Made by a program: the position numbers and the translations under genes. The notes beneath the pieces were generated by a model, which saw nothing but the letters and a program-made list of their open reading frames with translations, was not told the origin of the DNA and made no database searches. From contig QPGO01000133.1 of assembly GCA_008632985.1 (NCBI GenBank), forward strand, positions 1 through 64,000: a stretch of DNA of 64,000 nt, written 5' to 3'. Shown one piece after another: positions 5,100 to 28,200 of this stretch. Each line of letters opens with the position of its first letter. The first letter of the stretch is position 1. The stretch comes from Psammoneis japonica (Eukaryota).

Positions 5100-7180
5100 T
5101 TCGACCTCTTGTGTGCTGCAGACCAGTCTTGTGGGATTTCTGTCTAAAATGAAAAGTCCATGAGATGAGAAATGTGTTGTTTGCATCCAACGCCATGTGG
5201 GGAAATCAAAGTGTGTCAGCGCCCTCACCACATGGGTGCAGGACACATCCAGAGTTGGGTGCACTGACTCAGTGGATGGGTCGGTGACCAGATCCTCTCA
5301 ACTGAGATCTTTGCTTGCTCTCCAATGCCTGGTGCTGCCTGTTGTTGTTGCACACATCATGGGCGCCAGACGGGAAGACCCTGCAAGGTCATGTCTCCCT
5401 TTTGGCGATGCTTCCTCTGCATTGGCTGGGACACATCATGTTGACAAGAGGCAGATCAAGCACCTCAACTCACATTGAGCAAGGGCCCAGCAGCAGTGTG
5501 CCAGCATGCCATTCTTTCAAGGACTCTCATCAATGATGACTGGGCCTGATCCCAAGCCTTCTTTCTTGTGCCATGTGCCAGAGACTGCCGATGTCAGTTT
5601 TCTTGCACAGCAATGATCATGAGCTTGGAGATGTGTGGGTGTCTTGTGCATGGGGGAAGGGCCTTTCAAGCCCCTTTTGAACAAAGAGAGCACAAAGAAG
5701 CTGGTGTGATGAGAGATGGTTGCTTTTGTTGTTGCTGAGAAATGCAGCAGAGAGATTGACCCCCATTGCTCTTGCACATTTTTTGTCAAAACACCTCTTC
5801 CAACACTCTCTCCAAGGATTTGTCATTCCCACAAAAAGCTGCTGCGGGTGAAAGACTGACAACAAAGGGTTTTGAAGTGACGGGGTTGTTTCACACAGGG
5901 GGGTTTTGAAATGACAAAATCTTGCCACGCAGCATGAAGGCAAAACTCAAAATGCCAAGTGCAAATTTCCTCAAAACACAAAACCTGAAAGAGAAAAGAG
6001 AATGCTCTCAAAGGGTTCTGACAAGGAAATTTCCATGCCAGATCCACATGAGATGCAAAGAGCAAAACAATGCACAGCATGTTGCTGGTTGCTGAGCTTG
6101 ACAATTTGGCATGATGTTTCAACCTGATCATTTGCAACAAATGCCCAGAGAAAAGTGATTGAGCCACAAAAGACCTGTGCTCCACAAACTTGCCAACTCA
6201 TCATTTAGAGCACAAAGCTTGAGTTGCAACACAGCTCAAAACTTGCCTTGGTTGGCTGGTGTCATGACAGAGAACAAAAATCCAAAAGCAGCGGTGTGCC
6301 CATCCCTTGACTGCATGCCATGCTCTTTGTTGTGCGATGAAAAGTTCTCCAAATTCCTTCTGAAAAAGCACAAGCTGTCCAGCAACATTCGCAGCATTGC
6401 ACCCAGCAAGAACAAGGGGGCAAACACAATCTCTTTGCATGCCACCAGCTTCTTGGCTGTTGGTTGGAAGCACACTTGTTGCCCAGACACTGCAAGCTCC
6501 AGCCATGTGCCCAAATTCAGCCAGCACCAAACTTGTGAAGAAAACCTTTTGAGGTGGCTGTCAAAGAGCACCCACAACCTGGGGCTGGAGCAGGCCAAAA
6601 ATGGGCTGGCTGCCACAGATTCCCCTGGGGATTGTCCCTGGGATTCCCAGCAACAGTGCAAAATGGGCCCTTGTCCAGAGAAGTTCTGAAGTTTCCAGGA
6701 GTTTTGTGCTGAACCCCTCTCTCATTGTGCGGGGCTTGCTTGGGGTGGCCTTGCAGAAGGGTGGGGTGGCTCTCAGTCAAACAAACAGCGATGGTCCTGT
6801 GGTGCAAGCAAGACCCACACCCCCGTTGTCAACAAAGCTTCTTGCAGCAATTCCCAATGTTTTGCCAACTGATTTGGGCTGACTCCCAGCTTGCTCTGGC
6901 CAGCAGACAAGTTGTTGTTTAAACTCATTGGTTGTCGCGGCCGCTGCCCTGCTTGCTTCTGCTTCAGCAAAACCAAAATGATGTCACAGCGCTTGCACAG
7001 CGAGCGAGTTGTTGCCGATCTGAAATTTTGCTCCCCCTCTTTGGTTCCCCCGTCGCCAGCTGCCCCGCTTTCCTGCAAGTCAATGATGTGATGACCTGTC
7101 GTGCCCCCCCCCCCCCTGCGCCCCACACGGACAACCGACATGTGACATGATGTGGAGAAAAAAGCGAAGGAAACGTTGAT
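5100..7180. other. TpA- and CpG-depleted degenerate repeat-derived block
   Basis: Only a handful of TA in about 2 kb (e.g. CTAA ~5144, TTAG ~6205, TTAA ~6919); TG/CA-rich. The right end (~7005-7040) matches ~15705-15740. Confidence 0.8.
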
Positions 7181-7276
7181 GAATGTACGGCAAAGTTCAA
7201 GAGTGACAGTAGTTGGTGCTGTTGTTGCAGTCGCTCTTGTTTGTATCCTTTTCATTTGTCAGCATACGGTATAACA

Positions 7277-7888
7277 ATGGTATATGTGGTTGGAAGCGAA
7301 TACAACAATGAAGAACAAGAGATTGAAATTGACGTCAACAGCTCGCAAGCATCAGGCCCAGTGAGTTCGTCTCGTCGCCTCGAATTTATCCTTGAGCTTG
7401 TCGGTATCCCGTCGGACGATTTGCCACTAGTACTTGAGAAAGCCAAGGACATGGGCCTGACGGCAGATGATTTGGGATTTATTGAACAACAAGATGTGGA
7501 TTCGCTCTTGTCGGAATGCAGTAGCTTGCAAAGGCGAAAGTTTGTGCAAGTATGTGAATATCTCAAGCACGGTGGTACTTTGGCGCATGGCATGACCATG
7601 ACGGATGTGTACGATAAGAATAAAAAAGTTGAGGAAATAGATAATCAAGAAGAAGAAAAACAAGAAGAGAAGGAAGAAGAAACGCCACCTTCGGCTACAA
7701 GCGCTACGAGTCCCTCTGCAGCGGATGTTCCTTCTTCCACGCAACAAAACTCCGCTCCCAACAAAAATTACTTTGACAACGCCTCAAAGGCATTCAACCA
7801 AATACCTCAGCAGCTTCGAAAGTGGCAACGATTCAAAAGACAGTTGCGTGGTATTGTGAATGCGCTCAAGGGATGTTTTAAATTCTAG
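7277..7888 (+). CDS. Hypothetical protein with small helical domain and acidic linker; intact paralog of the pseudogene at 15936
   Basis: ATG at 7277 in ACAATG context, open frame, normal TA content. A degenerate duplicate lies at 15936-16550. Confidence 0.7.
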   Translation: MVYVVGSEYNNEEQEIEIDVNSSQASGPVSSSRRLEFILELVGIPSDDLPLVLEKAKDMGLTADDLGFIEQQDVDSLLSECSSLQRRKFVQVCEYLKHGGTLAHGMTMTDVYDKNKKVEEIDNQEEEKQEEKEEETPPSATSATSPSAADVPSSTQQNSAPNKNYFDNASKAFNQIPQQLRKWQRFKRQLRGIVNALKGCFKF

Positions 7889-8209
7889 CTAACGAGCTGG
7901 CCCTTGGAACTGTATGAAAATCAAATTCTCTCTAGTTTAATGAAGATAGATCCCAGCTCACTAGATTGACCTTTACAAGAGAAGTCGGAGGTTTAAAAGG
8001 CTTCGTTTCAACATGTTCGATTTCACGGCTTGTAACCCGATGTTTGTCTCAGAGCTATGAAGTGGTCAAGTGCCGACTTTTGTTACAGAGAACACACTGT
8101 AACACTCCACTTTGTTGATCGCATCGGGTGGTTTATTTTTCAATTTGTGAGGCTCACGAGTAGTGGAAAGGAACAGCTGCTACGGCACAATGCTGTAGAT
8201 TTCACCGTC

Positions 8210-9960
8210 CATTGAAAATTCGCTCGTGCTCACACACGAATTTCGAATGTCTCCGACACAACTGGAGGCATGCTTCTTCCTGTGTGTTTGTTTGCACTCT
8301 TCGTCACATCTTGGCAGGTCTTTAGAAAGTGACGTGTGAAAAGAAAATGACAACGCACAACAAGTTGACAATGCCTGTTCAAAGCATTTGACAACGCACG
8401 TGCCTGTTCACACACATGATGCAAACCAAAAACAAAGAGCAGAGAAGCGATGGCATTCACCTCATTTCTTTCTGCTTGTTTGACAGGCATTGAGGTGTCA
8501 ATGAAGCAGATTTCTTCTGGCAACGAGAAAGACTCTTGTGGCAAGGCAATCAATGGAGGCGATCCTTTTGGACCTGCTCCAGCTGCAAAAAGTGCATGCC
8601 ACATTCTGCAACAACACAACAACAACAACAACAACTCACACAGATGGGAGCCTGAATTTGACATTTGAGCAGCAGTTGTGTCTGGCAAATCTGATGTAGA
8701 CTTTCCTCCCTTGAAGATTTTTTGCTGCTTCTTTCCTCAGATTTTTGCTCATTTTGAAGTGCCGGCTGCCACCCTTGTTGCTTGAAGATCATGGACAATG
8801 AAAAGAGAAATCTTTGGAAATTGATTTTTGTGAGAAAATGATGGCACAATGCATGTTGCTGTTTTTCAGATGCATTTGAGAGACTGTTTTGCTGCTGCCT
8901 CTTTTGTTGGGCGCCTTGCATTTTGAGGAAGAAGTGTGTCTGTGCTGCTCTCATCATGTGAGGAGCTCACAAAGAAAAAGCTTGTCATGATTGGCCATCC
9001 TGTGTGAGAGTCTTGAGTGAACAAAAAGACAACACCAAAATGGTGGCACCAAAGCTCGATGGCTGTGGAGCCACCAGGTGATTTGAAAGGTGCTTGTGCA
9101 GAGTCAACACAAACCTTTGCAAAAATTGCAATGCTCAAACTGTGGGTGCTGTGCCTTAGAATGAAGTCAATTGGCCACAACACCTGGGTGTCACTGGCAT
9201 TGTTGCTCCACTTTGCAATTTTGGATCCATCGCACTTGTGCCCAGGCTTCTCAATCATTGCACACCCCCAAAGCTGAGCACCCAGCCACTCTTTTGTTCA
9301 TGACAAAATTGGTGTGTTTGAGCACCAACTCATCATCAAAGCAAAAGTGTCACCCACAACAACTTGAGCTGCAGACAATGATGCACACACCAACACACCA
9401 CAGAGGCTCGCGCTGTTGTTTGTGTCTCCAGCACCAAGCTGGCAAGCTGGGCACAGCAGAAGCCAAAGAACCCTGCTTTGCAGTTTGAGAGTGTGAGAAA
9501 AAGTGGCACAAAAAAGCTGAGTCAAAAGGATCATGTCCGTGCAACACAACAGAGCAGCAAAATCCAAGCTCCAACAAAGAGGCTTTGCACTTGCTTTGTG
9601 CCAACAAAGCCGGCGCCAGGTTGCTTTTTCCTCATTTTTTGTTGCTTCTTTCCTCAGATCTGTTCATTGTCAAGTGCTGGAAGTCATTCTCACCATTGCT
9701 TGGGGGGTGCAGGAAATGAAAGAAAAATCTTCAGGAAGCAATTTTTGGCAAGAAAACGATTGGAAGCTGTGCACACAGCTGCTTTTGCTCTTTGAGCCAC
9801 TGCTTTTCTGTTTCTTCTGCTGCATCTGACTGTTTTTAACAACCCCCCCCAGATTCATCCACTCATCAACAATGCTGAGAAGAAAGATGAGGTTAAAAAA
9901 ACATTGTTCAGAGCTTGCAAGTGACAGCTGCAAGAGGAGTCTCCGGTTTTTCTTTGCCGA
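8210..9960. other. TpA/CpG-depleted degenerate block (unidentified repeat relic)
   Basis: TA and CG are nearly absent; contains a (CAA)n run at ~8610-8635. Confidence 0.75.
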
Positions 9961-9972
9961 GTGCTGTAAGCC

Positions 9973-10015
9973 GCGATCCAACGCGCTTGTCGACCCACGA
10001 CTCAAAATCCGCACG
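9973..10015 (+). promoter_or_regulatory. Upstream motif GCGATCCAACGC..TCGACCCACGACTCAAAATCCGC shared by three loci
   Basis: Near-identical copy at 17106-17146 and a degenerate copy at ~14062-14115, each about 100-150 bp upstream of a gene or pseudogene start. Confidence 0.45.
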
Positions 10016-10120
10016 TATCATGTCGTGTTCAGTGTGGTCGTGTGATGTGCGATTTGGCTTCTCATCATGTCTCACGTCTCATACTCCATACAAACACGGA
10101 CTCAACCAGCAACCATCATC

Positions 10121-12482
10121 ATGGAGATTGGCAATAGCACCGACCCCGCTACGAGAAGAGGCCGCGTAGATGACATTGATTTGAAGTTGGCCGAACAAGA
10201 TACAGTTCTCTGTGGTTCAAACTTTAACGAGTACGAAACTGCCGTGAATGGCAACCTTCAGTTCAACCCGAACAGCAGTTTGCGCACTATTGACTGGCAT
10301 CGTTTTGGGACCATTCTGCCCGTTCCAGATAGCAGTAGTAATGGCCCACCTTGCAACTTTTCCGTTTTGTATCAAAACGGCCAGTCGTTCGTGGCGACTG
10401 TCGACGATTTGCTGAGTGATACAGAAATTGACCAGATCCTCGCCCAGTCGTGGCAGCCACAACATTATCACTACAATCGCAGTGATCGAGCTATTGTTAT
10501 CGACGAAGCCTTTTCGCACTTGTTGTGGAATCGTCTGGAAGGCACGATAGCTCAAATCGAAGAGCGCGTCGAGCAAGTGCAGCCGCTTGGATTTGGAACC
10601 TCCGGTGTCCACTGGAAGCTACAAAAATTAAACCCAGCTATACGAATCAACTCATACAGGCCTGGCCAAAGCTTTGCCATTCACCGTGATGCGCAGTTTT
10701 CGGAATCTCGAACCAGTCGATCCGTCTTTGGTCTTTTGGTCTATCTTAGTGACGCCTTTCGCATCGGAGGGAGACACGATTCTCTATTCCTCAAAACAGT
10801 AACGGCATCCTACTTCCAAACTCACCCCTGTCGGTTGCCGAAGAACTTGAATTCTATGCCGAGAACGGCATTGTTATGGAAGAAGTGAGCGTGACGCCTG
10901 CGCGGGGACGTTGCGTCATATTTTCTCATGATTTACTGCACGAGTCCCTGCCACTATTACAAGTCACGGCGGTGCACTGGACGGTGATGAAGCTCAGAAA
11001 GTCGTGTTGAGAACCGACATTGTCGCTACTTGCAGTGGCAATCCAATGTTCATGACACGAGACGAAGTACAGGACTATCAACGTTCGTTGGATCTATTCA
11101 CTAGAGCAGAAGAGATTGAACTCGAGTACAGTCGCTACTGCTGGACCCAGGCTCTCTTTGATCACGCGAGCTCGGACTCTGAAGACGAGTACTTGTACCC
11201 GGTTAATAAACCGGAGCGATTCTCTGAAAAGAGCTCTCAGGAGTTTTACGAGAAGTCTCTGTACTTACGGTACAGATATCCGAAGGCGTTGAAGAACCAT
11301 TCCATTCCAGACCACACATTACTGGAAAAGACTCTAAGAGACCTCGGTGAAGGCCCGCTTGTAAAGTCATGTCGTTCCTTACTCTGGCAGAAAGGCTCAG
11401 CTTACCGTGTTGTGTCCATCCTTGACGAAGGAGTTCCGTGCATCGGAGAACCTTGTTGACCGAGACGCGCAAGCGTTTTCTGCCGCAAATCCTATAGAAA
11501 TGGGCGAGCCAGGTCCATCAGATACGAATCACCGACGATCGATCCAATTAACTGTTCGCTCAACGGAAGACTTTCACGAACATTATGAAGCCTGGTGTCG
11601 CGTGGCTACTGTCTTGGTCCTGTACAAAATGACACATGCGTTTGCTGCTCCGAGTAAACGTCCTTGGTACTGTGCCAGATTCATGCCACAGACGGGGCAA
11701 GTGCTTGCTGTGCCGCTAGAAAGACTGATTTACGATGCATTCATGAACCAAAAGGGATGTGGGGCGATTTTTGCGGTTGAAAAGCAGACTGGGGACGAGG
11801 ATTTCAGAAGAGACTTTGAAGCTTCAGTGGATAGAAGTATTATGCTTCGGGATTTTGGAGTTGAATTTACTGGCCAGAACGTATTTGAGCACGTGTCTGT
11901 TGAAATTGGGAGAGCCCCAACGACGGACAACTTGACGAGAGACGTTAACGTTACGACCCCTTTTCTTGCTATACGGGGATACGTCGGCGATCATTTCGAT
12001 GGGAAAAAGGGGTTGGACTGGCTTCCACCTAAAGGGCGCACCGGTCCTGGGAGGCGCTGCGTTTTCTCTTCTTGTACGCGCCAAGGGCGTTTTAATCTCG
12101 AGGATCACTGCAACATTGATTTGTTCGGTGCTACTCTATCAGCGGAAGGGTTAGAGTCCAGAGAAGACCATGTCTTCAATCAATGCATCTTTGATTTTGA
12201 AAGACATGAGCTCAAAATAACAACATCAACCGATGACGACGCAATGTTGTCTATTCGGTAGATTTTGAGCCGATTGCTAGGAATGTCGCCCCATTCTATC
12301 ATGCAGCGGCTTACCACGGCCATGTTGACTTGGGCATCTCTACAAAGATGCTTTTTACTCCCATACGTTCGGCATATTATAATAACGAAAAGACCATTCG
12401 TGTGAAAGCGAACGAAATTGGAGAATCGGAATGGGTCGTCAATGTGGACTGGGACCTGAACTTCTTCGAAATTGTCTTGTAG
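10121..12482 (+). pseudogene. 2OG-Fe(II) oxygenase (prolyl-4-hydroxylase-like) with long C-terminal extension; at least 4 frameshifts (pseudogene or assembly errors)
   Basis: LNPAIRINSYRPGQSFAIHRD (HxD), then GETRF, PARGRCVIFSHDLLHE and VLRTDIV in successive frames. Frame changes near 10770, 10960-11000, 11400 and 12255; final stop at 12480-12482. Confidence 0.75.
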
Positions 12483-14214
12483 AGCTGTTAGTTTATTCTA
12501 AAAGGTGGTTAAGAGCGATCAAACTTGCCATCGTCGCATCGGTGTATGGTTACCTGAATCATCGAACCGGCAAACTATGACAGTAGGAAACTTTGTAGGA
12601 CAAGAGAGCACAAAACGACACCCGGCGCATGGACAGAATTTTTTTGCTTTCGGCTATCCTGCTCACCGTTCCACTTTGAGGCAATGGCCTCCCAAAGCAA
12701 GGTTCTTCCACAATAGGTAGCACTGCCACCTGCCGGCCGATTCACCACATTGTTTCATTTTCGTAGTGTGACTCATCCTGCTCATCACACTATTTCTTGC
12801 TCTCTTCTGTAACACATGATGCCTGCACAGCTCCTCCCTCAAGAGCAGCAGCTCCTCCCTCAAGAGTGGTGGCATCTTTTGCCCAAACCCAAATGGAAAA
12901 ACACGTTGCTTGGCATTCCGGGAACCATGTCACTCCAAGATGCCACTGGCTTGGATGAAAATGTTTTTTGTTCACAGCTTGGTCATGCAAAACTCATTGA
13001 GTTGTGAAAAAAGGGCAGTGGTGGCTCTCTTCCTGGAGCACAGCACAAAGCACCAAGGTGATGCATGGTTGCAAGAGAGAGAAGAAAGAAGCACACTTTG
13101 AAAGACACACAACAAAAAACAGAAAGATGTTGGCTGCAGGCCAGCACAATTTGCCACTTGATCCCCCATTGCCTGGCACAGCAAGCAGGTGCAGTCTTCT
13201 CTGGGAGGGAGAGATGAGGCTTTGACAGCTGCAAAAAAAGCTCAAAATGGCCAAAAAGAGAAAGACAGTGCTTGCATGTAAAACAGAGCACAAAAATGTC
13301 ATGTTGAACACTGCCTGCCACAGCACCTGTGGCTGATGAGCCAAGATGTTCAGAAACAACAAAACAGCAGGTGTCCTCAACATTTTTTTCAGCAAAGCAA
13401 TGATTTCTTGGCAGGGGTGCTTGTGCTGGAGTTTGTGTGTGTGTTGTGCAAAAAGAAGGGTGCAGTGCACACAGAGCTTCTGCTCACAGACTGGAGCAGG
13501 AAGTGCAATGTTGAAAAAGGGCATGGCATTGTTGCCAAGTTTGCCAAGTTGTGAGTGTCTGGCATGCTCCAACTGAAGGCCCCACATGTTTTTTTCTGCA
13601 ACATCAGCTGTTGTCAAGAACATCAACACTCTGGAGTTTGTGCCACACAAGAAGCACAAAGATGTTTTGTCAAAATTTGTTGCTGGACAGAAAGGTGGAG
13701 TGTGCATTTTGGTCTGGTTCAGGGAGGCCTCAACATGCCAAGTCTGGGCGCCAGTGGATCATGACTGTGTGTGTCTTGCCCTCCCCCCAGTCTAATGAAT
13801 TTGCATTTGAGCTTTGCTTTTGCCAAATGTGGAAGATTTTTTGAGACAAGATGAGCCAACTTGACATCCTGCGTTGCCTTGAGATGACCAAGTGAATTTT
13901 GGTGATCTGGCCATTTCACATGTTTCTTGCAGTGCACCTGGTCATGTCCCCCCCCACCCAGGTCTCTCTCTTCACTTGTCTCTGTTCAAGGTTGGTTGTT
14001 CTTTCTTCTTTTTTGGGCTCTTTCTGTCTGTCCTGGCATGTGAACACATGACAATGTGAGCGGCAATCTAATGCTGGCGCATTGCGGGTCAACCCACGAC
14101 TCAAAAACCACACACAAAATTGGCCGGGTGTTGTGTGTGGTTCATCACCAGCACCAAGGTTTGACTGCAAAAAAGAAAAACAAACATCAACACAGCAAGG
14201 GATCAAGAGAGCAC

Positions 14215-15113
14215 TGTGTTGTTGCAAAGAGCCTCATTTCTGTCTGCACTCAAAATTTGTCAATCAGCATCTGCTGCCAATCAGGGCAGTGAGCTTCTTG
14301 TTCAAGTGAGCTGTTGATTCCACACGGAGCATTGTGCACAGTCTGTCACAGATCTTGTTAAACTGACTCATGATGTTTTGCAGTTTTTGGTCTTGCACAG
14401 TTTCCAGCAAGTTCAAAGAAAGAGGGTGGGTGTGATCATCAAGATGCTCAGTTTGGCATTCTGTCCTGTGGTGTGGATTCATTCAGGGGAACATTTGTCA
14501 TGCTCACTGTGTGCCCCACACTTCCATTGTTGCCACTGTGCATTCTTGTGGTGGATTGTGGAGGTTGTTTCTTTGTGCAAAAAGTCCGCAATGCTCAATG
14601 CAATGGTGCTGCTGCTGTGTTTGCAGTGGACAATGCCTGTCTTTGTTCCAATGAGGAGTGTTTGAATGACAACACTGAAGACGCTTCATCATCATGCCAA
14701 AACAAGGAGCTGATTCTTGCAGATGATGGCTTGGGCACCAACACATTTCCATTCCAACCTTTCTCAAGAAAAAAACAGATGCCAACAGGGTGAAACAAGA
14801 GCTCAAGGATGGAAATCTTGCTGTGATGGAAATGTTGTGGACCACAAAAGAAAAGGACCACGTTGTCTGTGAACTCCACATGGTTCCAACCAACTTTGCT
14901 TCTTGGGATTTTTTGCATGGCTTTGGCAATGTTGCAGCAGCATCAGGAACAAGGCGACCTTTGTTCCTTGCATGTCATGTGCATTTGCAATGGCACCAGG
15001 TCACACACTCAAGGAGTTTCTGGAGAGAATTTCTGTTTCAACAAGACCAGCCCAGACGATGATTTGGCAAAGGGCACATTGGGTGCCAGCATTGTTGCCA
15101 AAAGCCTTTGATG
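14215..15113 (+). pseudogene. Hypermutated, truncated copy of the VSR-like gene at 17246
   Basis: Colinear with 17246-18210 including intron 1, e.g. VDCGGCFFVQKVRNAQCNGAAAV vs VDRGGCTFVQKVRNAQHNGAAAV. Shows TA->TG/CA and CG->TG/CA changes plus indels. Confidence 0.9.
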
Positions 15114-15935
15114 TTCATTCACATGGGAACAATGTGCTCTTGCATGGGTGAGGCAGAGTCATCTGTCACCCAGTCATCACCCAATGCAGGGGACACAACC
15201 TTGCCAAGTTCTGCCCAAGACTGCCTCAGTCCCCAGGATTTAAGCCCAAAAAACCACCACCCAAGCCCCCATGCCCCCCTTGATGCTCCACCCATGGAGG
15301 GCAAGCCCGAGGCATGGGAGATGAAGTTGAGCCCAACAACAATGGCAAAGTGACATCCGATTTGAGAGTGCAAGCCAACTTGACAAAGGCACTGTCATCT
15401 GCAAAAGAGGAGAAGAAATCAGGCATGATGGGAGAGAGACAAGCAAACAGAAACAGATTTTTTCAAAACTTGCAGCAGTCCAGTCACAGTGACCAATGTT
15501 CCTGTTCCAACAAAGCTGGAAAAGTGAGAAGAGCAAAAAGACCATGCGGGGTCATCTTGGCTCAGATGTGCCCTCCTCCAGGTGGTCAGCAACCAGAAAG
15601 TGTCGCCCTTGTTGGGCGGGCATGCTGAAGGCTTGGTGTCTCCATCTAAACTTGGGTGTGAAGAGGACAAAAAGTTGTCAGCTGACGATGTTAGAGCAAG
15701 CAAGCAAGTTGTTGCCAATCTGAAATTTTGCTGCTGCACCCCCCTTGGTTGCCAACACAACAAAAATGCAGTGCCCCCCATTTTGTTGCTCCCTCAAGTC
15801 TGCATTTTTCCCTCCATGAAATGGCGCCACCGGCTGTTGAATGTGTTCGCTCAACAGCAACAACACATTTGATGTCATTGTTGTTGCAGCCACACTTGTT
15901 TGCATTCTTTTCATTTGTCAGCATGTGGCACAACA

Positions 15936-16550
15936 ATGGCACATGTGGCTGGAAGCAAAAACAACAAGAGTGAAGAACAACAGAGAGATTGAAATTGACA
16001 CGTCAATGGCTCACAAGCATCAGAGGCTCAAGTTTGTCCTTGAGCTTGTTGGCATCCTGTTGAACAACTTGCCACAAGTGCTTGAGAAAGCCAAGGACAT
16101 TGGCCTGATGCATGGTGGATGTTTGGGATTTGTTGAACAACAAGATGTGGATTGGCCAGTGCCAGAATGCAGCAGATTGCAGCATCGAAAGTTTGTGCAA
16201 GTGTGCAAACATCTCAAGCAGGGTGGTGTTTTGATGCATGGCATGACCATGACAGATGTGCACCACAAGAACAAACAAGATGAGGAAATGGAAAATCAAC
16301 AAAAAGAAAAACAAGAAAAGAGAAGAAGAAGAAAGACCATCTTCGGCTGCAACACAAGCACTGCGAGTCCTTCTGCAGTGGATGCCCCATCTTCGTCAAT
16401 GCAACAAAACTCCACCCCCAACAAAAATTGCTTTGACAATGCCTCAAAGGCATTCAACCAAATGCCTCAGCAGATTCGAATGTGGCAATTGTTCAAAAGA
16501 CACAAGTGCGCGGCATTGTGGTGCACTCAAGGGATGTTTTGAGTTTTGGC
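15936..16550 (+). pseudogene. Hypermutated copy of the gene at 7277
   Basis: Colinear with 7277-7888, and flanks also align (7000-8315 vs 15700-17005). Examples: TATATG->CACATG and GTATGTGAATATC->GTGTGCAAACATC. Confidence 0.9.
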
Positions 16551-17245
16551 TGTGGCGAGCTGGTCGTTTGCACTTGTGGCAATGGCGGTTCTTGGAAACG
16601 GGCAACTGCATGAAAAGCACATTCACCAAGCTTTACATGGGAAGACGAATCTTTGAAAGCTTTCGTTTTGTCTCCACTTGACATCTTCGATTTCACGGCT
16701 CTGCTGCAAGAACCCAATGATGTTGGCCAGAGCTTTCAAGTGGTCAAGTGCCGTTTTTTTGTGCAGACTTTCTGCTGAAACACTCAACTTTGTTGATTGC
16801 ATTGGATGGCCCATTTTTCAATTTATGGGGCTTGCGAGTGGTGCAAAGGAACAGCTGCTGCATGCGGCGCGGCTGTTCAGTCGACTTCACAGTCCATTGA
16901 AAATCCACATGCGTGCTCACACACGGATTTTGAATGCCACTGACACTGCTGCAGGCATGTTTTTCCCTGTGTGTTTATTTGCGCTATCGTCATCACAGTT
17001 GGTCCTGGAGGTGCAAAATTTGAAAACAGCTTGTTTGGGTTCATCTCGCTCGCTCGGCTGGCTCGCTCCCAGCGCCTCAAGACAGTCTGCACGTCAGCCG
17101 TTTTTGCGATCCAACGCTCGTCGACCCACGACTCAAAATCCGCGCGTAAAACTTGAAAACGGTCGTGTGCGGTTTGTTGTTCCTTTCGCTTTTCGCTGTG
17201 TCGCACAACATAAAACATCAACGCAGCGAGGACGAAGAAAGCACC

Positions 17246-19844
17246 ATGTTGCAAAGAGCCTTATTTCTGTCGGCGCTCATCGTTTGTCAAAAAGTTTATG
17301 CTGTCAATTAGAACAGCAAGCTTTTCATTCATGTAAGCTTTTTATTCCATGCACAGCGCACAGCGCTATGCAAAGTCGATTGTATCTCATTTATTGAACC
17401 GATTCCTGACGTTTTGCAATTTTTTTTTTGTCTTGCACAGTCTCCATCAAGTTTAAAGAAAGAGGACGGATACGATCATCGAGATGCCTTGTTTGGCGTT
17501 CCACCCTATGGTGGATCCATTCAGGGGAATGTATATCACGTGCAAGACGATTTGTGTAGCGTGACGAGCCTTACAAATCTCACTGTGTTTCCCACGCAGC
17601 CATTGTCGCCACCGTACATTCTCATGGTGGATCGTGGAGGTTGTACCTTTGTACAAAAAGTCCGCAACGCTCAGCATAACGGTGCCGCTGCTGTGATTGT
17701 AGCGGATAACACCTGTCTTTGTTCCGATGAGGAATGTGTGAAAGAGAATACACAAGACTCTTCATCATGCCAAAACGAGGAACCCATTCTTGCCGATGAC
17801 GGCTCGGGTGCCGACATTTCCATTCCAACCTTTCTCATGAAAAAGACGGATGCCGAAAAGGTGAAACAAGAACTCAAGGATGGAAATCCTGTTGTAATGG
17901 AAATGTCGTGGACTACAAAAGAAAAGGACCACGTTGTCTATGAACTCTACACGGTTCCAACCGACTTTGCATCACGAGACTTTTTGCACGGTTTTGGCAA
18001 TGTCGCGGTAGCGTTAGGAAACAAGGCGACCTTTGTTCCTCACATGTATGTTTATGATGGCGCCAAGTCTCACTGTCAAGGTGATTCCGGAGAGAATTTC
18101 TGTTTTAATTTGTGTACAAACGGAGGACGCTACTGTGAGACCGACCCGGATAACGATTTAGAAAAGGGCACATCAGGTGCCGATGTTGTTGCCGAGAGTC
18201 TTCGACGTTTGTGTATATGGAAGCAATATGGAGAGACAGATGGTATCGGCAAGCCGTGGTGGGACTACGTGGCTGAGTTTGACAAGGAGTGCTCCGTGGC
18301 CGGCAAGTTCAACGACACTGCCTGCATCCAAGAGGCCTATGATCATGCGGGTGTCGACAAGAACAAGATTGATGCCTGTATGGAGGATAGTGGTGGCTTG
18401 ACGAACGATGCAGCAAATGCATTGCTAGATTTGGAAATCGCGGCAGCGACGAGCAATGGCGTGGTTGTTCTTCCCACCTTGCTTGTCCAAACTACTGCCG
18501 TTCGAGGGCAGCTATCCACACAAAACGCCTTTTTTGCGATTTGCGCTGCTTTTACGGAAGGCACAAAACCAAGCATCTGCAATGAGTGCTCTGATTGCGG
18601 TTCTAGTTTTGACGGCTGTATCGCCAATGAAAGATGCGCTCCTCCAAACCTCACGTTCCTGCGGAAAAACCTAGTGTAGAGAATTCGTACGACGATGCGC
18701 TACCAACGACCCATTCGAAGACATGCTGTCTTCTGAAACAGTAATGGAATTTCTCGGTGGGCTTGGAGATTGTGGAATTGATATGGAGGAATTATGGGCA
18801 CGGCGGCAGGCTTGGGTGGAGAGAATCCCGACATGCAAGATCTGTCTAGCCTAGCTGAGATGGATCTGTTGAAAGAGTCTCCGGCTTGCAGTGATGCAGA
18901 GAAGGACCGCATGAGTGAGGCATTTGAGTCATTCAATGCTTGCACTGGATATGACATGTTGGAGTTGGAAGAATTGTGGCCTAGCGCCTTGGTGGGCGTG
19001 ATACAGAAATGCGCAAAATCGTTGATGGAAGTAGCCATTTCAACGAACGTCACAGACCTGGCCAACGCGGACTTTGAGCTAGACGATGTCCCGAAAGAGT
19101 GTTCCTCGGCCTTGTTGGGAACAATCCGCTCGGAACAGCCATTCGTCGGTTACTGTTGCATCCCGACGAAACACTACCTTGCTTCCAAGCCGTGTCTGAA
19201 GAGCTTCCACGGTGCTCGCTTGATCTTGGCCTATTGGCATTGATGGCGGACTGCTCAAGCTAGGCTCGTGTATAATTGGCAAAACCACTCCTCTTTGGGA
19301 AGGCTTTTGCAACATTACGTTGACAGGCTTTGACGAGTGTTTGCCCAAGAAGGGTGCCTTTGTTGAATCGGACTGTGAGACTGTTGCTCATTCTTGCGCC
19401 AATACTTCTGAAGGAGCACTGGGAGCATTCTTTGATTTGCCAAAGTCCTTAATGGGACTCCCGCTACCTGATACATGCGTCCGCTTGAGCAGTGTCAATC
19501 CGAAAGGTGCCGTAGTAGATCGATATGATGAGTTTCGGTCGACCTGCACGGCGGGAAGTCCCTTGTGGACAGCCTGGGAAAACGGAGACGTCGAGTCGGC
19601 TCAGCTGTATTTAGAAACCATGACTAGTGGGCCTTCTCAATCATTGGCTCTTCTGAAGGACGCCAAAACCGGGAGTTCGATAATTTCGTTTTTCAGTGGT
19701 TTGGTCACTGGCATGTGTGCTGTCGGACTTGCTGTCGCTGTTGTCATGGTACGAAAGAGACAAGTCAACAAGAAAGGAGCAGCAGCAGAAACAGCAAATG
19801 CCAAGTACAGTCCTGTTGTCCCCGATGAAGGAGAAATGGCCTGA
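17246..19844 (+). pseudogene. Vacuolar sorting receptor-like gene (signal peptide, PA domain, VSR central domain, Cys-rich region, TM, YxxPhi tail), disrupted
   Basis: Exon 1 (17246-17332) encodes a signal peptide with an in-frame TAG at 17309-17311; intron 17333-17440. Motifs ALFGVPPYGGSI, VDRGGCTFVQKVRNAQ, CTNGGRYC and ESLRRLCIW. Downstream fragments 18794-19243 and 19320-19844 carry the TM and KYSPV. A single gene spanning the frameshifts is inferred. Confidence 0.7.
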
Positions 19845-22199: not shown

Positions 22200-22227
22200 C
22201 GCCATCCAGGTAGTTTAGGCGCTTGTG

Positions 22228-25200
22228 ACACAAGCAATGTGATGGGCCAGTGGTGCTGGCGTTGAGTTCAATCCGTCGAGGCGGATTTGTCGCTGAAGGT
22301 GCAGTGCAGAAATTGTGAGAATGCAGCATCAACATGACGGATTTTTGTGACATGCTATTGCATCTTTGGTGTTGTTTCTCACTTCTTGTCATCATTTTGA
22401 CGCATGTGCCACAAGGTGTCCACGGGGCTTGGGTTTTTATGGTGCTGACTTTCTCTTCGGAACTTGTCGTTGAATGATCAAAATTGAGCTGCCACTGGAA
22501 TTTATGGCAAAGAGTTGGCGGCGGTGATGTCTCAACATCCCTTGGGCCGATTTTCGCGATTCTTGTTTCATCACCAATGGAAATTGTACAAGGAATCCAA
22601 GAGGCTTGGTTTTGTTGTGCAAAATTCCATTCTGTGCAGATGGATTTATTGGGTGCCGTGCGCACAGAAATGATGCTTCAATTGGAAGGGGCGCTCCAGC
22701 GATGTTGTGGATTGAACAAGGAAGAATGAAGCCCCAGACACACACTGCATGTGACAAGAATGTCAAATGTGAATGTCAAACATGGCACGGGGTTTTTTAC
22801 GTCAGTTGATCGTGTCGGGTTGCCTTGATTTGACAGAACATTCCACGGCACCAACCGGTTTGACATGTGGCTGGAAATCGGCTTCCTCCAGTGTTCCAAC
22901 CAATTTGACCTTGCTTGCATGGGCAAGCTGTTGTCGCCTGGTTCGGGCGTTCCATGCGCCTTTAGACCCATCCACCACGACATCGTTGGGGGTTGTTTGA
23001 ATGGCCTCTGGTTGGTGAAGTCTTGTTCACATTGACAAGTCACCCCGCCAAGAAATAACGTGAGTGCTGTCAAGGTTGGCTTGTAATGCTTTTTAGACGG
23101 CATGGTCTCGGTTGTGTTGTTGCACAAATCCATCAAAAACGCGACGCACCATGCAACAACCCGGTTGTTTCGACACGGGAAAAATTCCCGTGCTTCCTCC
23201 ACAAGAACACGGAAGATGCGGTTGCTGAAGTGGGGTAACGGTCAGTGCAATGTGTGGAATTCAACGGAGAAATGCTACGGAATGCAACATGGGTTGTGTT
23301 CCCGGGATAATGTGGAGGTAGACGGAAAGAATGCAACCCTGGGTACAACTGCGCAGGGTCTAGCACTTCTTCTACAGGGTCACCAGGAAAGCACAGACAC
23401 CGACTTCCGCTACATCAACCTGCAGCACCCTCCAAGACGCGCAGCTGCGAAGACAACCAAAAAAGAAAACGATCGCGACAATGGCCTCCCTTGCGTCGCT
23501 GACATCTATGTCTATTTTTGCCGTATTTTCCCGTTTCTTTTCGCAGCATTCGGAGCTTTTATACAAGCAATGTGATGGGCTAGTGGTGCTGGCGTTGAGT
23601 TCAATCCGTCGAGGCGGATTTGTTGCTGAAGGTGCAGTGCAGAAATTGTGAGAATGCAGCATCAACATGACGGATTTTTGTGACATGCTGTTGCATCTTT
23701 GGTGTTGTTTCTCACTTCTTGTCATTGTTTTGACGTATGTGCCACAAGGTGTCCACGGGGCTTGGGTTTTTATGGTGCTGACTTTCTCTTCGGAACTTGT
23801 CGTTGAATGATCAAAATTGAGCTGCCACTGGAATTTATGGCAAAGAGTTGGCGGCGGTGATGTCTCAACATCCCTTGGGCCGATTTTCGCGATTCTTGTT
23901 TCATCACCAATGGAAATTGTACAAGGAATCCAAGAGGCTTGGTTTTGTTGTGCAAAATTCCATTCTGTGCAGATGGATTTGTTGGATGCCGTGCGCACAG
24001 AAATGATGCTTCAATTGGAAGGGGCGCTCCAGCGATGTTGTGGATTGAACAAGGAAGAATGAAGCCCCAGACATGCACTGCATGTGACAAGAATGTTAAA
24101 TGTGAATGTCAAACATGGCACGGGGTTTTTTACGTCAGTTGATCGTGTCGGGTTGCCTTGATTTGACAGAACATTCCACGGCACCAACCGGTTTGACATG
24201 TGGCTGGAAATCGGCTTCCTCCAGTGTTCCAACCAATTTGACCTTGCTTGCATGGGCAAGCTGTTGTCGCCTGGTTCGGGCGTTCCATGCGCCTTTAGAC
24301 CCATCCACCACGACATCGTTGGGGGTTGTTTGAATGGCCTCTGGTTGGTGAAGTCTTGTTCACATTGACAAGTCACCCCGCCAAGAAATGACGTGAGTGC
24401 TGTCAAGGTTGGCTTGCAATGCTTTTTAGACGGCATGGTCTCGGTTGTGTTGTTGCACAAATCTGTCAAAAACGCGACGTACCATGCAACAACCCGGTTG
24501 TTTCGATGCGGGAAAAATTCCCGTGCTTCCTCCACAAGAACACGGAAGATGCGGTCGCTGAAGTGGGGTAACGGTCAGTGCAATGTGTAGAATTCAACGG
24601 AGAAATGCTACGGAATACAACATGGGTTGTATTCCCGGGACAATGTGGAGGTAGACGGAAAGAATGCAACCCTGGGTACAACTGCGTAGGGTCTAGTGCT
24701 TCTTCTACAGGGTCACCAGGAAAGCACAGACACCGACTTCCGCTACATCAACCTGCAGCACCCTCCAAGACGCGCAGCTGCGAAGACAACCAAAAAAGAA
24801 AACGATCGCGACAATGGCCTCCCTTGCGTCGCTGATGTCTACATCTGTTTTTGCCGCAATTTCCTGTTTCTTTTCGCAGCATTCGGAGCTTTTACACAAG
24901 CAATGTGATGGGCCAGTGGTGCTGGCGTTGAGTTCAATCCGTCGAGGCGGATTTGTCGCTGAAGGTGCAGTGCAGAAATTGTGAGAATGCAGCATCAACA
25001 TGACGGATTTTTGTGACATGCTGTTGTGTCTTTGGTGTTGTTTCTCACTTCTTGTCATCATTTTGACGCATGTGCCACAAGGTGTCCACGGGGCTTGGGT
25101 TTTTATGGTGCTGACTTTCTCTTCGGAACTTGTCGTTGAATGATCAAAATTGAGCTGCCACTGGAATTTATGGCAAAGAGTTGGCGGCGGTGATGTCTCA

Positions 25201-28200
25201 ACATCCCTTGGGCCGATTTTCGCGATTCTTGTTTCATCACTGATGGAAATTGTACAAGGAATCCAAGAGGCTTGGTTTTGTTGTGCAAAATTCCATTCTG
25301 TGCAGATGGATTTATTGGATGCCGTGCGCACAGAAATGATGCTTCAATTGGAAGGGGCGCTCCAGCGATGTTGTGGATTGAACAAGGAAGAATGAAGCCC
25401 TGGACACGCACTGCATGTGACAAGAACATTAAATGTGAATGTCAAACATGGCACGGGGTTTTTTACATCAGTTGATCATGTCGGGTTGCCTTGATTTGAC
25501 AGAACATTCCACGGCACCAACCGGTTTGACATGTGGCTGGAAATCGGCTTCCTCCAGTGTTCCAACCAATTTGACCTTGCTTGCATGGGCAAGCTGTTGT
25601 CGCCTGGTTCGGGCATTCCATGCGCCTTTAGACCCATCCACCACGACATCGTTGGGGGTTGTTTGAATGGCCTCTGGTTGGTGAAGTCTTGTTCACATTG
25701 ACAAGTCACCCCGCCAAGAAATGACGTGAGTGCCATCAAGGTTGGCTTGTAGTGCTTTTTAGACGGCATGGTCTCGGTTGCATTGTTGCATAAATCTGTC
25801 AAAAACGCGACGCACCATGCAACAACCCGGTTGTTTCGATGCGGGAAAAATTCCCGTGCTTCCTCCACAAGAACACGGAAGATACGGTCGCTGAAGTGGG
25901 GCAACGGTCAGTACAATGTGTAGAATTCAACGGAGAAATACTACGGAATACAACATGGGTTGTATTCCCGGGATAATGTGGAGGTAGACGGAAAGAATGC
26001 AACCCTGGGTACAACTGCGTAGGGTCTAGTACTTCTTCTACAGGGTCACCAGGAAAGCACAGACACCGACTTCCGCTACATCAACCTGCAGCACCCTCCA
26101 AGACGCGCAGCTGCGAAGACAACCAAAAAAGAAAACGATCGCGACAATGGCCTCCCTTGCGTCGCTGACATCCACATCTATTTTTGCCGTATTTTCCCGT
26201 TTCTTTTCGCAGCATTCGGAGCTTTTATACAAGCAACATGATGGGCTAGTGGTGCTGGCGTTGAGTTCAATCCGTCGAGGCGGATTTGTCGCTGAAGGTG
26301 CAGTGCAGAAATTGTGAGAATGCAGCATCAACATGACGGATTTTTGTGACATGCTATTGCATCTTTGGTGTTGTTTCTCACTTCTTGTCATCATTTTGAC
26401 GCATGTGCCACAAGGTGTCCACGGGGCTTGGGTTTTTATGGTGCTGACTTTCTCTTCGGAACTTGTCGTTGAATGATCAAAATTGAGCTGCCACTGGAAT
26501 TTATGGCAAAGAGTTGGCGGCGGTGATGTCTCAACATCCCTTGGGCCGATTTTCGCGATTCTTGTTTCATCACTGATGGAAATTGTACAAGGAATCCAAG
26601 AGGCTTGGTTTTGTTGTGCAAAATTCCATTCTGTGCAGATGGATTTGTTGGATGCCGTGCACACAGAAATGATGCTTCAATTGGAAGGGGCGCTCCAGCG
26701 ATGTTGTGGATTGAACAAGGAAGAATGAAGCCCCAGACACGCACTGCATGTGACAAGAATGTTAAATGTGAATGTCAAACATGGCACGGGGTTTTTTACG
26801 TCAGTTGATCGTGTCGGGTTGCCTTGATTTGACAGAACATTCCACGGCACCAACCGGTTTGACATGTGGCTGGAAATCGGCTTCCTCCAGTGTTCCAACC
26901 AATTTGACCTTGCTTGCATGGGCAAGCTGTTGTCGCCTGGTTCGGGCGTTCCAAACGCCTTTAGACCCATCCACCACGACATCGTTGGGGGTTGTTTGAA
27001 TGGCCTCTGGTTGGTGAAGTCTTGTTCACATTGACAAGTCACCCCGCCAAGAAATGACGTGAGTGCTGTCAAGGTTGGCTTGCAATGCTTTTTAGACGGC
27101 ATGGTCTCGGTTGTGTTGTTGCACAAATCCATCAAAAACGCGACGTACCATGCAACAACCCGGTTGTTTCGATGCGGGAAAAATTCCCGTGCTTCCTCCA
27201 CAAGAACACGGAAGATGCGGTCGCTGAAGTGGGGCAACGGTCAGTGCAATGTGCAGAATTCAACGGAGAAATGCTACGGGGTGCAACATGGGTTGCATTC
27301 CCGGGATAATGTGGAGGTAGACGGAAAGAATGCAACCCTGGGTACAACTGCGTAGGGTCTAGTGCTTCTTCTACAGGGTCACCAGGAAAGCACAGACACC
27401 GACTTCCGCCACATCAACCTGCAGCACCCTCCAAGACGCGCAGCTGCGAAGACAACCAAAAAAGAAAACGATCGCGACAATGGCCTCCCTTGCGTCGCTG
27501 ATGTCTGTGTCCATTTTTGCCGCATTTTCCCGTTTCTTTTCGCAGCATTCGGAGCTTTCACACAAGCAATGTGATGGGCCAGTGGTGCTGGCGTTGAGTT
27601 CAATCCGTCGAGGCGGATTTGTCGCTGAAGGTGCAGTGCAGAAATTGCGAGAATGCAGCATCAACATGACGGATTTTTGTGACATGCTGTTGCATCTTTG
27701 GTGTTGTTTCTCACTTCTTGTCATCATTTTGACGCATGTGCCACAAGGTGTCCACGGGGCTTGGGTTTTTATGGTGCTGACTTTCTCTTCGGAACTTGTC
27801 GTTGAATGATCAAAATTGAGCTGCCACTGGAATTTATGGCAAAAAGTTGGCGGCGGTGATGTCTCAACATCCCTTGGGCCGATTTTCGCAATTCTTGTTT
27901 CATCACCAATGGAAATTGTACAAGGAATCCAAGAGGCTTGGTTTTGTTGTGCAAAATTCCATTCTGTGCAGATGGATTTATTGGATGCCGTGCGCACAGA
28001 AATGATGCTTCAATTGGAAGGGGCGCTCCAGCGATGTTGTGGATTGAACAAGGAAGAATGAAGCCCCAGACACGCACTGCATGTGACAAGAATGTTAAAT
28101 GTGAATGTCAAACATGGCACGGGGTTTTTTACGTCAGTTGATCGTGTCGGGTTGCCTTGATTTGACAGAACATTCCACGGCACCAACCGGTTTGACATGT

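Follow-up and report, generated by a model that had tools for sequence, protein, structure and literature searches.

Two genes in a window of 64,000 nucleotides (the whole stretch of Psammoneis japonica contig QPGO01000133.1 that was analysed) are each present as one untouched working copy and one hypermutated spare. In the spare copies, almost all TpA and CpG have been replaced by TpG or CpA, and both lie in a single contiguous block with other DNA that carries the same signature. The window is nuclear DNA of a diatom. The pairing of mutated and untouched copies reveals the direction of an unusual mutation process that reaches DNA derived from ordinary genes.

A local segmental duplication of two genes

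A repeat search of positions 6000-19500 recovered 19 families of direct repeats, with offsets of either ~8650-8700 or ~3027-3094; inverted repeat pairs were absent. Self-blastn joined two pairs of segments, labelled A/A' (7220-8306 against 15879-16992, E 0.0) and B'/B (14182-15041 against 17213-18108, E 1e-177). Their start codons align pairwise, 7277 in A with 15936 in A' and 17246 in B with 14215 in B'. Repeats, self-blastn and global alignments thus confirm the local segmental duplication proposed in a preliminary description of this DNA.

Segment A (6991..8310, forward strand, delimited by alignment to A') is the copy of normal composition. It holds an ORF of 203 aa (7277-7888), the sequence upstream of it and about 420 nt downstream. 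The predicted product appears to be a small lineage-restricted protein, with only two homologs, P0121 (E 3e-23) and P0122 (E 3e-15), among 1.84 billion representatives; both begin with MVYV, as does the A protein. Segment A' (15690..16999, forward strand, delimited by alignment to A) is a hypermutated pseudogene copy. The filtered global alignment of the two, with 1060 of 1230 columns kept, has 82.6% identity, and the ORF region of A' has 11 indels, several of which are not multiples of three and shift the frame.

Segment B (17112..18245, forward strand, identified by alignment and Pfam) comprises the upstream region and the initial ~320 codons of a vacuolar sorting receptor (VSR) gene, again of normal composition. 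The VSR ORF (17312-18679) extends past the duplicated part and includes the Pfam domains VSR_TRX (E 6e-49) and PA (E 6e-11). The B protein has 835 homologs, the best of them ~60% identical, and the named ones are from diatoms. Segment B' (14080..15161, forward strand, delimited by alignment to B) is a hypermutated and 3'-truncated copy, with 80.6% identity over the 929 of 1079 columns kept. Homology between the two stops near 18245 in B and 15161 in B'. Across 281 aligned codons B' differs from B by 96 amino acids and has 2 in-frame stops; Tyr to Cys or His and Arg to Cys, Gln or stop are frequent replacements.

The present order along the locus is A ... B' A' B. The outer copies, A and B, are still functional, and the inner copies are pseudogenes, B' being truncated and A' redundant. 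Transversions are nearly equally frequent in the two pairs (60 in 1060 columns for A/A', 50 in 929 for B/B'), and since this distance is the same, both pairs are equally old and stem from one event. A' is collinear with B across a spacer of ~107 nt, and each A copy is followed by a copy of the B upstream motif, in the case of A beyond an insertion. This shared order fits the duplication of a chromosomal unit. The locus thus records a single segmental duplication of a unit composed of A, the spacer, and the VSR gene B from its upstream region through its 5' part.

The sequence immediately upstream of B has a third copy, also of normal composition, at 9973..10080 (forward strand), directly upstream of an ORF at 10067 and running into its start. 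Its first part (9973-10017) is 91% identical to 17106-17148 by self-blastn, and a three-way alignment was also made. The 24-nt core of the motif, not expected by chance anywhere in the window, occurs at three sites: at 9989 and 17120 (exact) and at 14088, where two of the three mismatches are CG to CA. A simple tandem duplication does not account for the whole history of the locus: the upstream motif is present three times, and the 4-kb segment between A and B' carries an apparently intact gene (10046-12261).

Two further depleted blocks adjoin A. One (8362..9816, TA-poor throughout and CG-poor at 8534-9774) lies between A and the 9973 motif copy and includes an internal direct repeat (8682-8866 and 9601-9786). 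A Pfam search of this block returned no match. It is probably an insertion, since it is placed where A' and B have only the ~107-nt spacer. The other, found by composition windows and segmentation, forms the left flank of A (5160..7044); at its right edge CpG is back at ~6900-7000 and TA at ~7150-7200.

Polarity and spectrum of the changes

Dinucleotide counts bear out the earlier claim of one normal and one hypermutated copy for each gene. A has 50 CG, 38 TA, 87 TG and 79 CA, and A' has 19, 3, 117 and 116, respectively; the corresponding counts are 55, 30, 67 and 71 in B, and 7, 1, 107 and 106 in B'. CG steps of A read TG or CA in A' at 28 of 49 sites, with 14 kept, and TA steps read CA or TG at 29 of 36, with none kept. 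For B, 45 of 54 CG steps (4 kept) and 24 of 29 TA steps (none kept) were converted in B'. Reverse changes numbered 4 in A/A' and 2 in B/B'. Symmetric spectra, which the preliminary description had set against its own reading, were therefore not seen: 126 steps that are CG or TA in the normal copies are TG or CA in A' or B', against 6 in reverse (binomial p 2.5e-30).

Comparison with other diatom sequences points the same way. At sites differing between A and A', A agrees with the outgroups P0121 and P0122 at 24 and A' at 5. B agrees with its orthologs at 47 of 48 informative sites, defined as those at which at least 30 of 40 orthologs carry one of the two residues. Orthologs and outgroups thus show A' and B' to be derived, as had been anticipated.

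Both strands are affected alike. In A', converted CG steps yielded TG 13 times and CA 15 times, and in B' 23 and 22 times, respectively; converted TA steps gave 13 CA and 16 TG in A' and 12 of each in B'. Transitions in the two directions, GC to AT and AT to GC, balance each other (57 against 67 in A/A', 72 against 58 in B/B'), so the CG and TA changes cancel and GC content is unaltered. Runs of CG and TA events coordinated by strand were tested for and did not reach significance, a result that is uninformative on the chemistry.

Extent of the depleted blocks

Windows of CpG and TpA observed/expected ratio (o/e) and segmentation placed both derived copies in one CpG- and TpA-depleted block (12850..16950). 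It contains B' and A', together with 1.3 kb preceding them and 0.5 kb separating them, all of it depleted; neither of these last two parts has a partner within the window. In 500-nt windows starting at 13001-16001, CpG o/e was 0.00-0.25 and TpA o/e 0.00-0.06. Segmentation gave a TA-poor stretch at 12919-16785 and CG-poor stretches at 12852-13925 and 13950-15648. The right end lies at ~16500 for CpG and at ~16950 for TpA, depletion of TA reaching ~450 nt further: in the 3' part of A' most CG are kept from ~16477, yet TA are converted as far as ~16863. The mutated block described earlier as spanning 12.8-17.2 kb is thus real and contiguous, but it ends short of 17.2 kb. No ORF of the block had a Pfam match, viral domains included.

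With the 3' end of the gene at 10046-12261 on its left and the B promoter on its right, the ~4.1-kb block behaves in the same way as other long stretches of the window that lack genes. In total, 13 TA-poor segments were delimited, with edges that resolve to ~100-450 nt. Genes keep a TpA o/e of ~0.4-0.75, whereas in the depleted blocks it falls to 0.00-0.08, CpA is enriched to 1.5-2.2 and GC is unchanged.

Copia elements and the tandem array

A Copia-type element (47017-53893), with RVT_2 in its internal ORFs by Pfam, has one mutated and one spared LTR. Comparison of the 3' LTR (47023..47208, reverse strand) with the 5' LTR (53708..53893, reverse strand) revealed 21 differences in 186 nt, all of them transitions. 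At 12 of the 21 the 3' LTR reads CA (7) or TG (5) against TA in the 5' LTR, and never the reverse. Only 3 TA are left in the mutated LTR, against 15 (and 9 CG) in the spared one, which lies 76 nt from the next normal ORF (53969) and is flanked by DNA of normal composition. Because the LTRs were identical at insertion and now differ, the changes arose after integration.

A second Copia-type element (58248..64000, reverse strand) has a TpA o/e of 0.15 and a near-normal CpG o/e of 0.90; the two elements together range over 0.11-0.15 and 0.84-0.90, respectively. Its RT ORF encodes a single Tyr in 575 aa, although the median Tyr content of 120 homologs is 2.92%. In 9 conserved Tyr columns it carries Cys (5), His (3) or Phe (1), and control residues are retained. 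Of the 120 homologs, P0147 alone lacks Tyr altogether. A contig of another assembly (L001) has a TpA o/e of 0.03 and a CpG o/e of 0.49, and TpA is normal in L002 and L003, which are more distant. The signature is therefore mutational and is not unique to this assembly.

The tandem array (22223..31313), which by repeat alignment has 6.8 copies of 1333 nt with 98-99% identity, is an early stage of the same process. Every copy has been hit. Its 66 variable sites comprise 27 of TA type, 13 of CG type, 13 CA/TG swaps and 13 others. TA survived at 129 of 222 copy-sites and CG at 387 of 408, with background change at 9 of 3960. Per-site loss was 0.543 for TA and 0.053 for CG (TA ~10 times faster) against a background of 0.0023. 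As an indirect estimate of rate, TA loss would be ~240-fold over background, although copy-sites are not independent events.

Comparison with known systems

Hypermutation confined to TpA has been reported from integrated viral DNA of the chlorarachniophyte Bigelowiella natans (Mettrop et al., bioRxiv 10.64898/2026.01.13.699255). The measurements there came from mutation-accumulation lines sequenced by Illumina; one of the regions was single-copy, and TpA-depleted CDS were enriched for RT and DDE domains (10.64898/2026.01.13.699255). As in B. natans, T/A to C/G transitions occur here only at TpA, giving TpG or CpA by strand; the affected regions are sharply bounded, with the remaining genome normal, and show long-term TpA depletion with CpA and TpG enrichment. 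A:T to G:C changes at TpA were found in A/A', B/B', the LTR pair and the array, and they affect both strands alike within bounded regions. The TpA part of the signature matches the process reported in 2026 for B. natans. The differences are several. The host here is a diatom, from another SAR lineage, and the targets are Copia elements, an array and two host-gene copies, whereas in B. natans they are foreign insertions of giant-virus or virophage origin. TpA o/e is 0.00-0.08, a near total loss, against 0.45 in the B. natans virus region. Depletion of CpG accompanies that of TpA here, and the term CpG occurs 0 times in the B. natans paper (10.64898/2026.01.13.699255). Finally, the de novo rate in B. 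natans came from mutation-accumulation lines, and the rates given here come from sequence copies alone. We found no report of such TpA hypermutation from diatoms.

RIP in ascomycete fungi, which is premeiotic and depends on a RID-type methyltransferase, likewise hypermutates repeated DNA by irreversible transitions, which inactivate it and leave their mark on its dinucleotides. In the description given in PMC2621366, its changes are restricted to C:G to T:A and fall mainly at CpA; it creates TpA, lowers GC and hits both copies. Here, TpA is destroyed (o/e 0.00-0.08 in the blocks) rather than accumulated from CpA, half of the changes are A:T to G:C (67 and 58 against 57 and 72 in the other direction) and GC stays as it was. 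In each pair one member has been spared, A and B being compositionally normal, with 6 reverse against 126 forward changes. The contrast with RIP drawn in the preliminary description holds, with a domain effect as the simpler reading.

Methyl-CpG decay, known from vertebrate genomes and methylated TEs, resembles the present case in the conversion of CG to TG or CA on both strands of silent DNA (28/49 sites in A/A', 45/54 in B/B'). It covers only the slower half of the signature and lacks the TpA component. In animals, ADAR and APOBEC make deamination-type transitions against retroelements and viruses, ADAR favouring A after U. These enzymes act on RNA or single-stranded cDNA, and their strand-biased changes predate integration. 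The changes described here, by contrast, are strand-symmetric and post-integration, and extend into non-transcribed flanks.

Proposed process and alternative explanations

The polarity, spectrum, strand symmetry, block contiguity, different rates and post-insertion timing observed here lead us to favour, by a narrow balance of probability, a position-dependent and strand-symmetric process in silent DNA that combines a fast TpA to TpG/CpA step with slower CpG decay, the pseudogene copies being bystanders. The dinucleotides that it would remove, TpA and CpG, are the two self-complementary pyrimidine-purine steps. Conversion of CpG to TpG or CpA would be ~5-10 times slower per site than that of TpA. 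A' and B' would have been mutated through their location, without recognition of a partner. The Copia LTR pair, one-sided by position, and the array, all copies of which were hit, argue that position rather than partner matters.

The idea that duplicates as such are sensed and one partner chosen is not supported in that form, B' (truncated) and A' (frameshifted) having come from one event and lying side by side in one block. Of the earlier statement that duplicates are targeted one copy at a time, the one-sidedness stands; the targeting is not supported, because adjacent and equally old copies share one block with unrelated depleted DNA. Since A' and B' derive from ordinary genes, the process is, as had been proposed, not TE-specific, and our observations support a reach wider than recognisable transposon sequence.

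The target state may be silent, probably methylated, chromatin bounded by active genes; methylation of diatom TEs has been described as dependent on DNMT5a. The CpG component could be ordinary deamination of 5-methylcytosine, and the TpA component is perhaps enzymatic. One route, proposed for B. natans, would be deamination of adenine within 5'-TA by an ADAT2/TadA-like enzyme; the other would be a modification of thymine that is then read as C.

A duplication-triggered, RIP-like defence, in which repeats are recognised by homology and A and B escape via transcription or other protection, is the strongest competitor, though we consider it unlikely. All identifiable targets are repeats (two Copia elements, the 6.8-copy array, A' and B'), and diatom DNMT4 enzymes, of unknown function, have been described as related to fungal RID. 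However, two LTRs that were identical when their element inserted fared differently, and the block includes 1.3 kb and 0.5 kb without a partner in the window. At non-coding and synonymous positions the normal copies still have their CG and TA, and selection therefore fails to account for their escape. Moreover, a hypermutated giant-virus region of B. natans is single-copy (10.64898/2026.01.13.699255), and the spectrum is unlike that described for RIP (PMC2621366).

It is improbable that the block at 12.85-16.95 kb is or once was a composite mobile element, that parts of A and B entered it by transduplication and that it was mutated as a transposon. B' is indeed a gene fragment flanked on both sides by DNA of no assigned origin, and the block at 8362-9816 resembles an insertion with internal direct repeats. 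Yet A' and B are collinear across ~107 nt and the other A copy is also followed by the B motif, which fits segmental duplication. The block at 12.85-16.95 kb has no transposase or RT domain by Pfam and no similarity to Copia proteins, and the repeat search detected no terminal repeats at its flanks.

Distribution in blocks and near-complete conversion could also be expected if modified bases were mis-read by a long-read caller, CG and TA being written as TG and CA with the DNA itself unchanged. Such an assembly or base-calling artefact is very unlikely, as A' and B' also carry transversions (60 and 50) and many indels, the LTR pair and array are otherwise clean, the signature recurs in L001 from another assembly and in the Tyr-free protein P0147, and the TpA to TpG/CpA changes of B. 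natans were called from Illumina data (10.64898/2026.01.13.699255). ADAR-like or APOBEC-like editing of A and B transcripts followed by retro-copying is barely conceivable: ADAR does favour A after U (Discussion of 10.64898/2026.01.13.699255), but strand symmetry and the post-integration divergence of the LTRs already contradict this explanation, the copies include non-transcribed upstream sequence and stay chromosomally collinear, and depletion is just as strong in the unrelated flanking DNA of the block.

Implications

The favoured position-dependent process invites a wider and decidedly speculative extension, to which we give little credence at present: a single chromatin-guided machinery in diatoms, possibly SAR-wide, that erases TpA and CpG from any silenced DNA. 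If this were true, silencing would become an irreversible death of the sequence, brought about without new stop codons or a shift in GC. Fresh silent gene duplicates would be destroyed in the same way, which would limit the expansion of gene families by local duplication.

Source and dinucleotide composition

The window is part of the nuclear genome of a eukaryote, a diatom. The evidence comprised its 64 kb and public protein and contig collections. The ORF at 17312-18679 possessed the VSR_TRX and PA domains of vacuolar sorting receptors (Pfam) and had 835 homologs, with a top identity of about 60% and the named ones belonging to diatoms. The "VSR-like" gene of the preliminary description is thus a vacuolar sorting receptor gene. 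Rfam produced no match anywhere in the window.

In 500-nt windows, genes had observed/expected (o/e) ratios of about 0.8-1.3 for CpG and 0.4-0.75 for TpA. Five stretches were depleted to 0.00-0.3 and 0.00-0.1, respectively, with TpG and CpA raised up to about 1.6-2.2 and GC unchanged. TA-poor and CG-poor segments were delimited by a count threshold, which gave TA-poor ones at, among other places, 5160-7044, 8362-9816, 12919-16785, 33170-35204 and 40085-46915. The CG-poor segments were nested within TA-poor ones, except that two of them began up to about 70 nt further left (12852 versus 12919 and 33130 versus 33170). Two Copia-type elements were poor in TpA and had kept CpG, with o/e ratios of 0.11 and 0.84 in Copia 1 (47017-53893) and 0.15 and 0.90 in Copia 2 (58248 to the window end).

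Duplicate pairs and their polarity

Two genes were each represented by a normal and a hypermutated copy, as the preliminary description had proposed, and the pairs were well polarised. They formed direct repeats with two offsets. A (6991-8310), a normal copy with a small ORF, aligned with A′ (15690-16999), and B (17112-18245), the upstream region and 5′ part of the vacuolar sorting receptor gene, aligned with the truncated copy B′ (14080-15161). Removal of poorly aligned columns before counting left 1060 of 1230 columns in A/A′ and 929 of 1079 in B/B′, over which identity was 82.6% and 80.6%. In purine/pyrimidine space the pairs were 87-98% identical. Among 49 CG steps in A, 28 had become TG or CA in A′ and 14 were kept, and 29 of 36 TA steps had changed in the same way with none kept. 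The corresponding counts from B to B′ were 45 of 54 CG steps, with four kept, and 24 of 29 TA steps, with none kept. The opposite change, with TG or CA in the normal copy and CG or TA in the other, was seen four times in A/A′ and twice in B/B′. Forward changes in both pairs summed to 126 versus 6 reverse (p = 2.5e-30), so that the spectra were one-sided and not symmetric between copies. Products were balanced by strand, both for CG (13 TG and 15 CA in A′, 23 TG and 22 CA in B′) and for TA (13 CA and 16 TG in A′, 12 CA and 12 TG in B′). Strand-coordinated runs of CG/TA events in A′ and B′ were not significant in a permutation test (P = 0.19-0.51).

Polarised counting against outgroup orthologs identified A′ and B′ as the mutated side. 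B and B′ had 96 differences over 281 aligned codons. At 48 sites, at least 30 of 40 diatom orthologs shared one of the two residues, and B matched them at 47 and B′ at one. B′ had two in-frame stops and many changes of Tyr to Cys or His and of Arg to Cys or Gln. For the 203-aa ORF of A, a search of 1.84 billion representatives found only two homologs (E = 3e-23 and 3e-15), both of which have the MVYV start and the C-terminus in common with A. At sites differing between A and A′, these outgroups agreed with A at 24 and with A′ at 5, and A′ carried frame-breaking indels. Judged from the ortholog and outgroup matches, the stops and the indels, A and B are conserved genes and A′ and B′ derived pseudogenes.

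Arrangement of the duplicated locus

The locus consists, in order, of A, a depleted block (8362-9816), one or more genes (10046-12261), a second depleted block (12850-16950) containing B′ and A′, and B. Transversions were similarly frequent in the two pairs (60 in 1060 columns of A/A′, 50 in 929 of B/B′), and both pairs therefore date from one event. A′ was followed, after about 107 nt, by the upstream sequence of B, of which a third copy (9973-10080) followed A beyond the 8362-9816 block. A 24-nt core of the upstream sequence occurred only at 9989, 14088 and 17120. The core at 14088, inside the block, was the sole altered copy, and two of its three mismatches were CG to CA. This arrangement fits a duplicated chromosomal unit of A, a spacer and the 5′ part of B, which would then have received insertions. 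The segment 10080-14080, which holds an apparently intact gene, sits between A and B′. The rest of the block (12850-14080 and 15161-15690) had no detectable partner or domain within the window, and local alignments in purine/pyrimidine space scored no higher than shuffled controls, whether for the 15161-15690 gap, for the left-hand part of the block or for the other blocks.

The region 10046-12261 held three consecutive ORFs of normal composition, flanked by two depleted blocks. The first (10046-10888) had a weak Pfam signal to 2OG-FeII_Oxy_2 (E = 0.025, below the cut-off) and Atlas feature matches to 2OG-FeII_Oxy_3 clusters (0.76-0.77), of which one was mostly diatom, and a PDB sequence search with it gave no match. 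Its start and upstream region were derived from a copy of the upstream sequence of the vacuolar sorting receptor gene.

Position of the mutated copies and order of loss

A′ and B′ are neighbours in one block, whose edges are close to the ends of the intact genes on either side. On the right, CpG recovered near 16500 and TA near 16950, approximately 300 nt upstream of the B start codon. The two LTRs of Copia 1 (47023-47208, mutated, and 53708-53893, spared) differed by 21 transitions and no transversions in 186 nt. At 12 of the 21 differences the repeat beside the normal gene at 53969 had TA and the other CA or TG, none was reversed, and only three differences involved CG. LTRs are identical at the time of insertion, and therefore these differences were acquired in the chromosome, according to position. 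In the tandem array at 22223-31313, 53 of 66 variable sites were TA-type, CG-type or CA/TG swaps, and every copy had its own mutation set.

From the block, LTR and array comparisons it follows that one-sidedness is not a rule of the process. The preliminary description had held that duplicates of host genes are targeted one copy at a time. That gene-derived DNA is reached stands, and the restriction to one copy is not supported in that form: all array copies were mutated. A place-dependent process on silent DNA is better supported than one that senses a partner. The strand-symmetric products and the LTR comparison ruled out a model of retrocopies from edited RNA. We would infer a link to chromatin, and likewise the chemistry and any effect on the growth of gene families.

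Survival in the array was 129 of 222 copy-sites for TA and 387 of 408 for CG, and the background differed at 9 of 3960. Per-site loss, counted over copy-sites that are not independent events, was 0.543 for TA, 0.053 for CG and 0.0023 for the background. TA was lost first and CpG later, an order also seen in the LTR pair and in the Copia elements, which are depleted in TpA only. The LTR pair and the array thus provide a time series in a single window, with TA far ahead of CG and CG far ahead of everything else.

The array was detected by repeat search, as its 1333-nt unit exceeds the longest period (500) of Tandem Repeats Finder. It comprised 6.8 copies that were 98-99% identical. The unit length is not divisible by three, and the unit ORFs had no Pfam match. 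Several variants were common to alternate copies (1, 3, 5), which suggests a higher-order unit of 2666 nt.

Copia elements and related loci

The reverse transcriptase (RT) ORF of Copia 2 had one Tyr in 575 residues, versus a median of 2.92% in 120 homologs. At nine columns with Tyr in at least 80% of 40 normal homologs, Copia 2 had Cys (5), His (3) or Phe (1). Control residues were retained (Phe 14 of 16, Trp 7 of 7, His 6 of 6, Arg 16 of 17). A metagenome scan returned three loci. One of them (L001, 1225 nt, from another assembly and 48% identical) had a TpA o/e of 0.03, a CpG o/e of 0.49 and no Tyr in 299 codons, and the other two (L002 and L003), which were more distant, had normal TpA. One of the 120 homologs (P0147) had no Tyr in 555 residues. 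L001 and P0147 are independent public records related to the Copia RT of the window, and as they share the signature, the process may extend to other organisms or strains.

The RTs of both Copia elements carried HVDD. An origin of this motif by Tyr to His mutation of YVDD was dropped, as the unmutated L002 and L003 also read AHVDD. A 155-nt tandem duplication (59841-60151, 98% identity) was found within Copia 2.

Content of the depleted blocks

None of the 53 block ORFs of at least 100 aa had a credible Pfam match; the two matches obtained (E = 0.0045-0.0096) were under the curated cut-offs. In tblastn searches, neither the 10 Copia ORFs of the window nor 120 Copia homologs matched anything but the two Copia elements. 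Long open frames occur on both strands of depleted DNA because TA loss removes TAA and TAG. The 53 frames were Tyr-free and rich in Cys and His (for example 12997-13758, 15841-16542 and 41226-41933). Since TA loss takes out these stops and all Tyr codons, the resulting spurious ORFs are an annotation hazard, and gene finders would probably call them as proteins.

A 486-aa frame at 34356-35816 had its 5′ part in the depleted block 33170-35204 and its 3′ part in DNA of normal composition (Cys 7.0%, His 4.9%). Either a gene start is covered by the block, or missing stops have lengthened the frame artificially. Short similarities, mainly in purine/pyrimidine space (86-88%), linked 32929-33081 with 44711-44867 and 8682-8866 with 9601-9786, and hint at old repeat families in the blocks.

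Comparison with known systems

The contrast with RIP drawn in the preliminary description was borne out. Measured against the features of RIP described in PMC2621366, the window fails on spectrum, GC shift and two-sidedness. The closer likeness is to Bigelowiella natans, for which a 2026 preprint (Mettrop et al., bioRxiv 10.64898/2026.01.13.699255) describes hypermutation at TpA only, to TpG/CpA, restricted to two regions, one a single-copy integrated giant virus and the other a virophage. Mutation-accumulation lines sequenced with Illumina gave rates about 1000-fold over background, and an ADAT2-like adenine deaminase is proposed. The window resembles B. natans in dinucleotide (TpA), products, strand symmetry and regional confinement, and differs in lineage, targets and the added CpG loss. 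The preprint makes no mention of CpG or diatoms. The CpG loss could most simply be methyl-CpG decay, because diatom transposable elements are described as methylated through DNMT5a. In a full-text literature search, no account of CpG and TpA being depleted together, or of TpA hypermutation, turned up for diatoms, and the terms "dinucleotide" and "hypermutat" were absent from the searchable text of Maumus 2009 (PMC2806351).

The process is not specific to transposable elements, as had been proposed, since A′ and B′ were also reached; the pairs show it acting on DNA from ordinary genes. They also provide an outgroup-polarised control for direction, strand symmetry and completeness, where otherwise there would be composition alone. 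If confirmed, TpA hypermutation, so far reported in one chlorarachniophyte preprint, would also occur in diatoms, and its targets there would be retrotransposons, satellites and pseudogenes.
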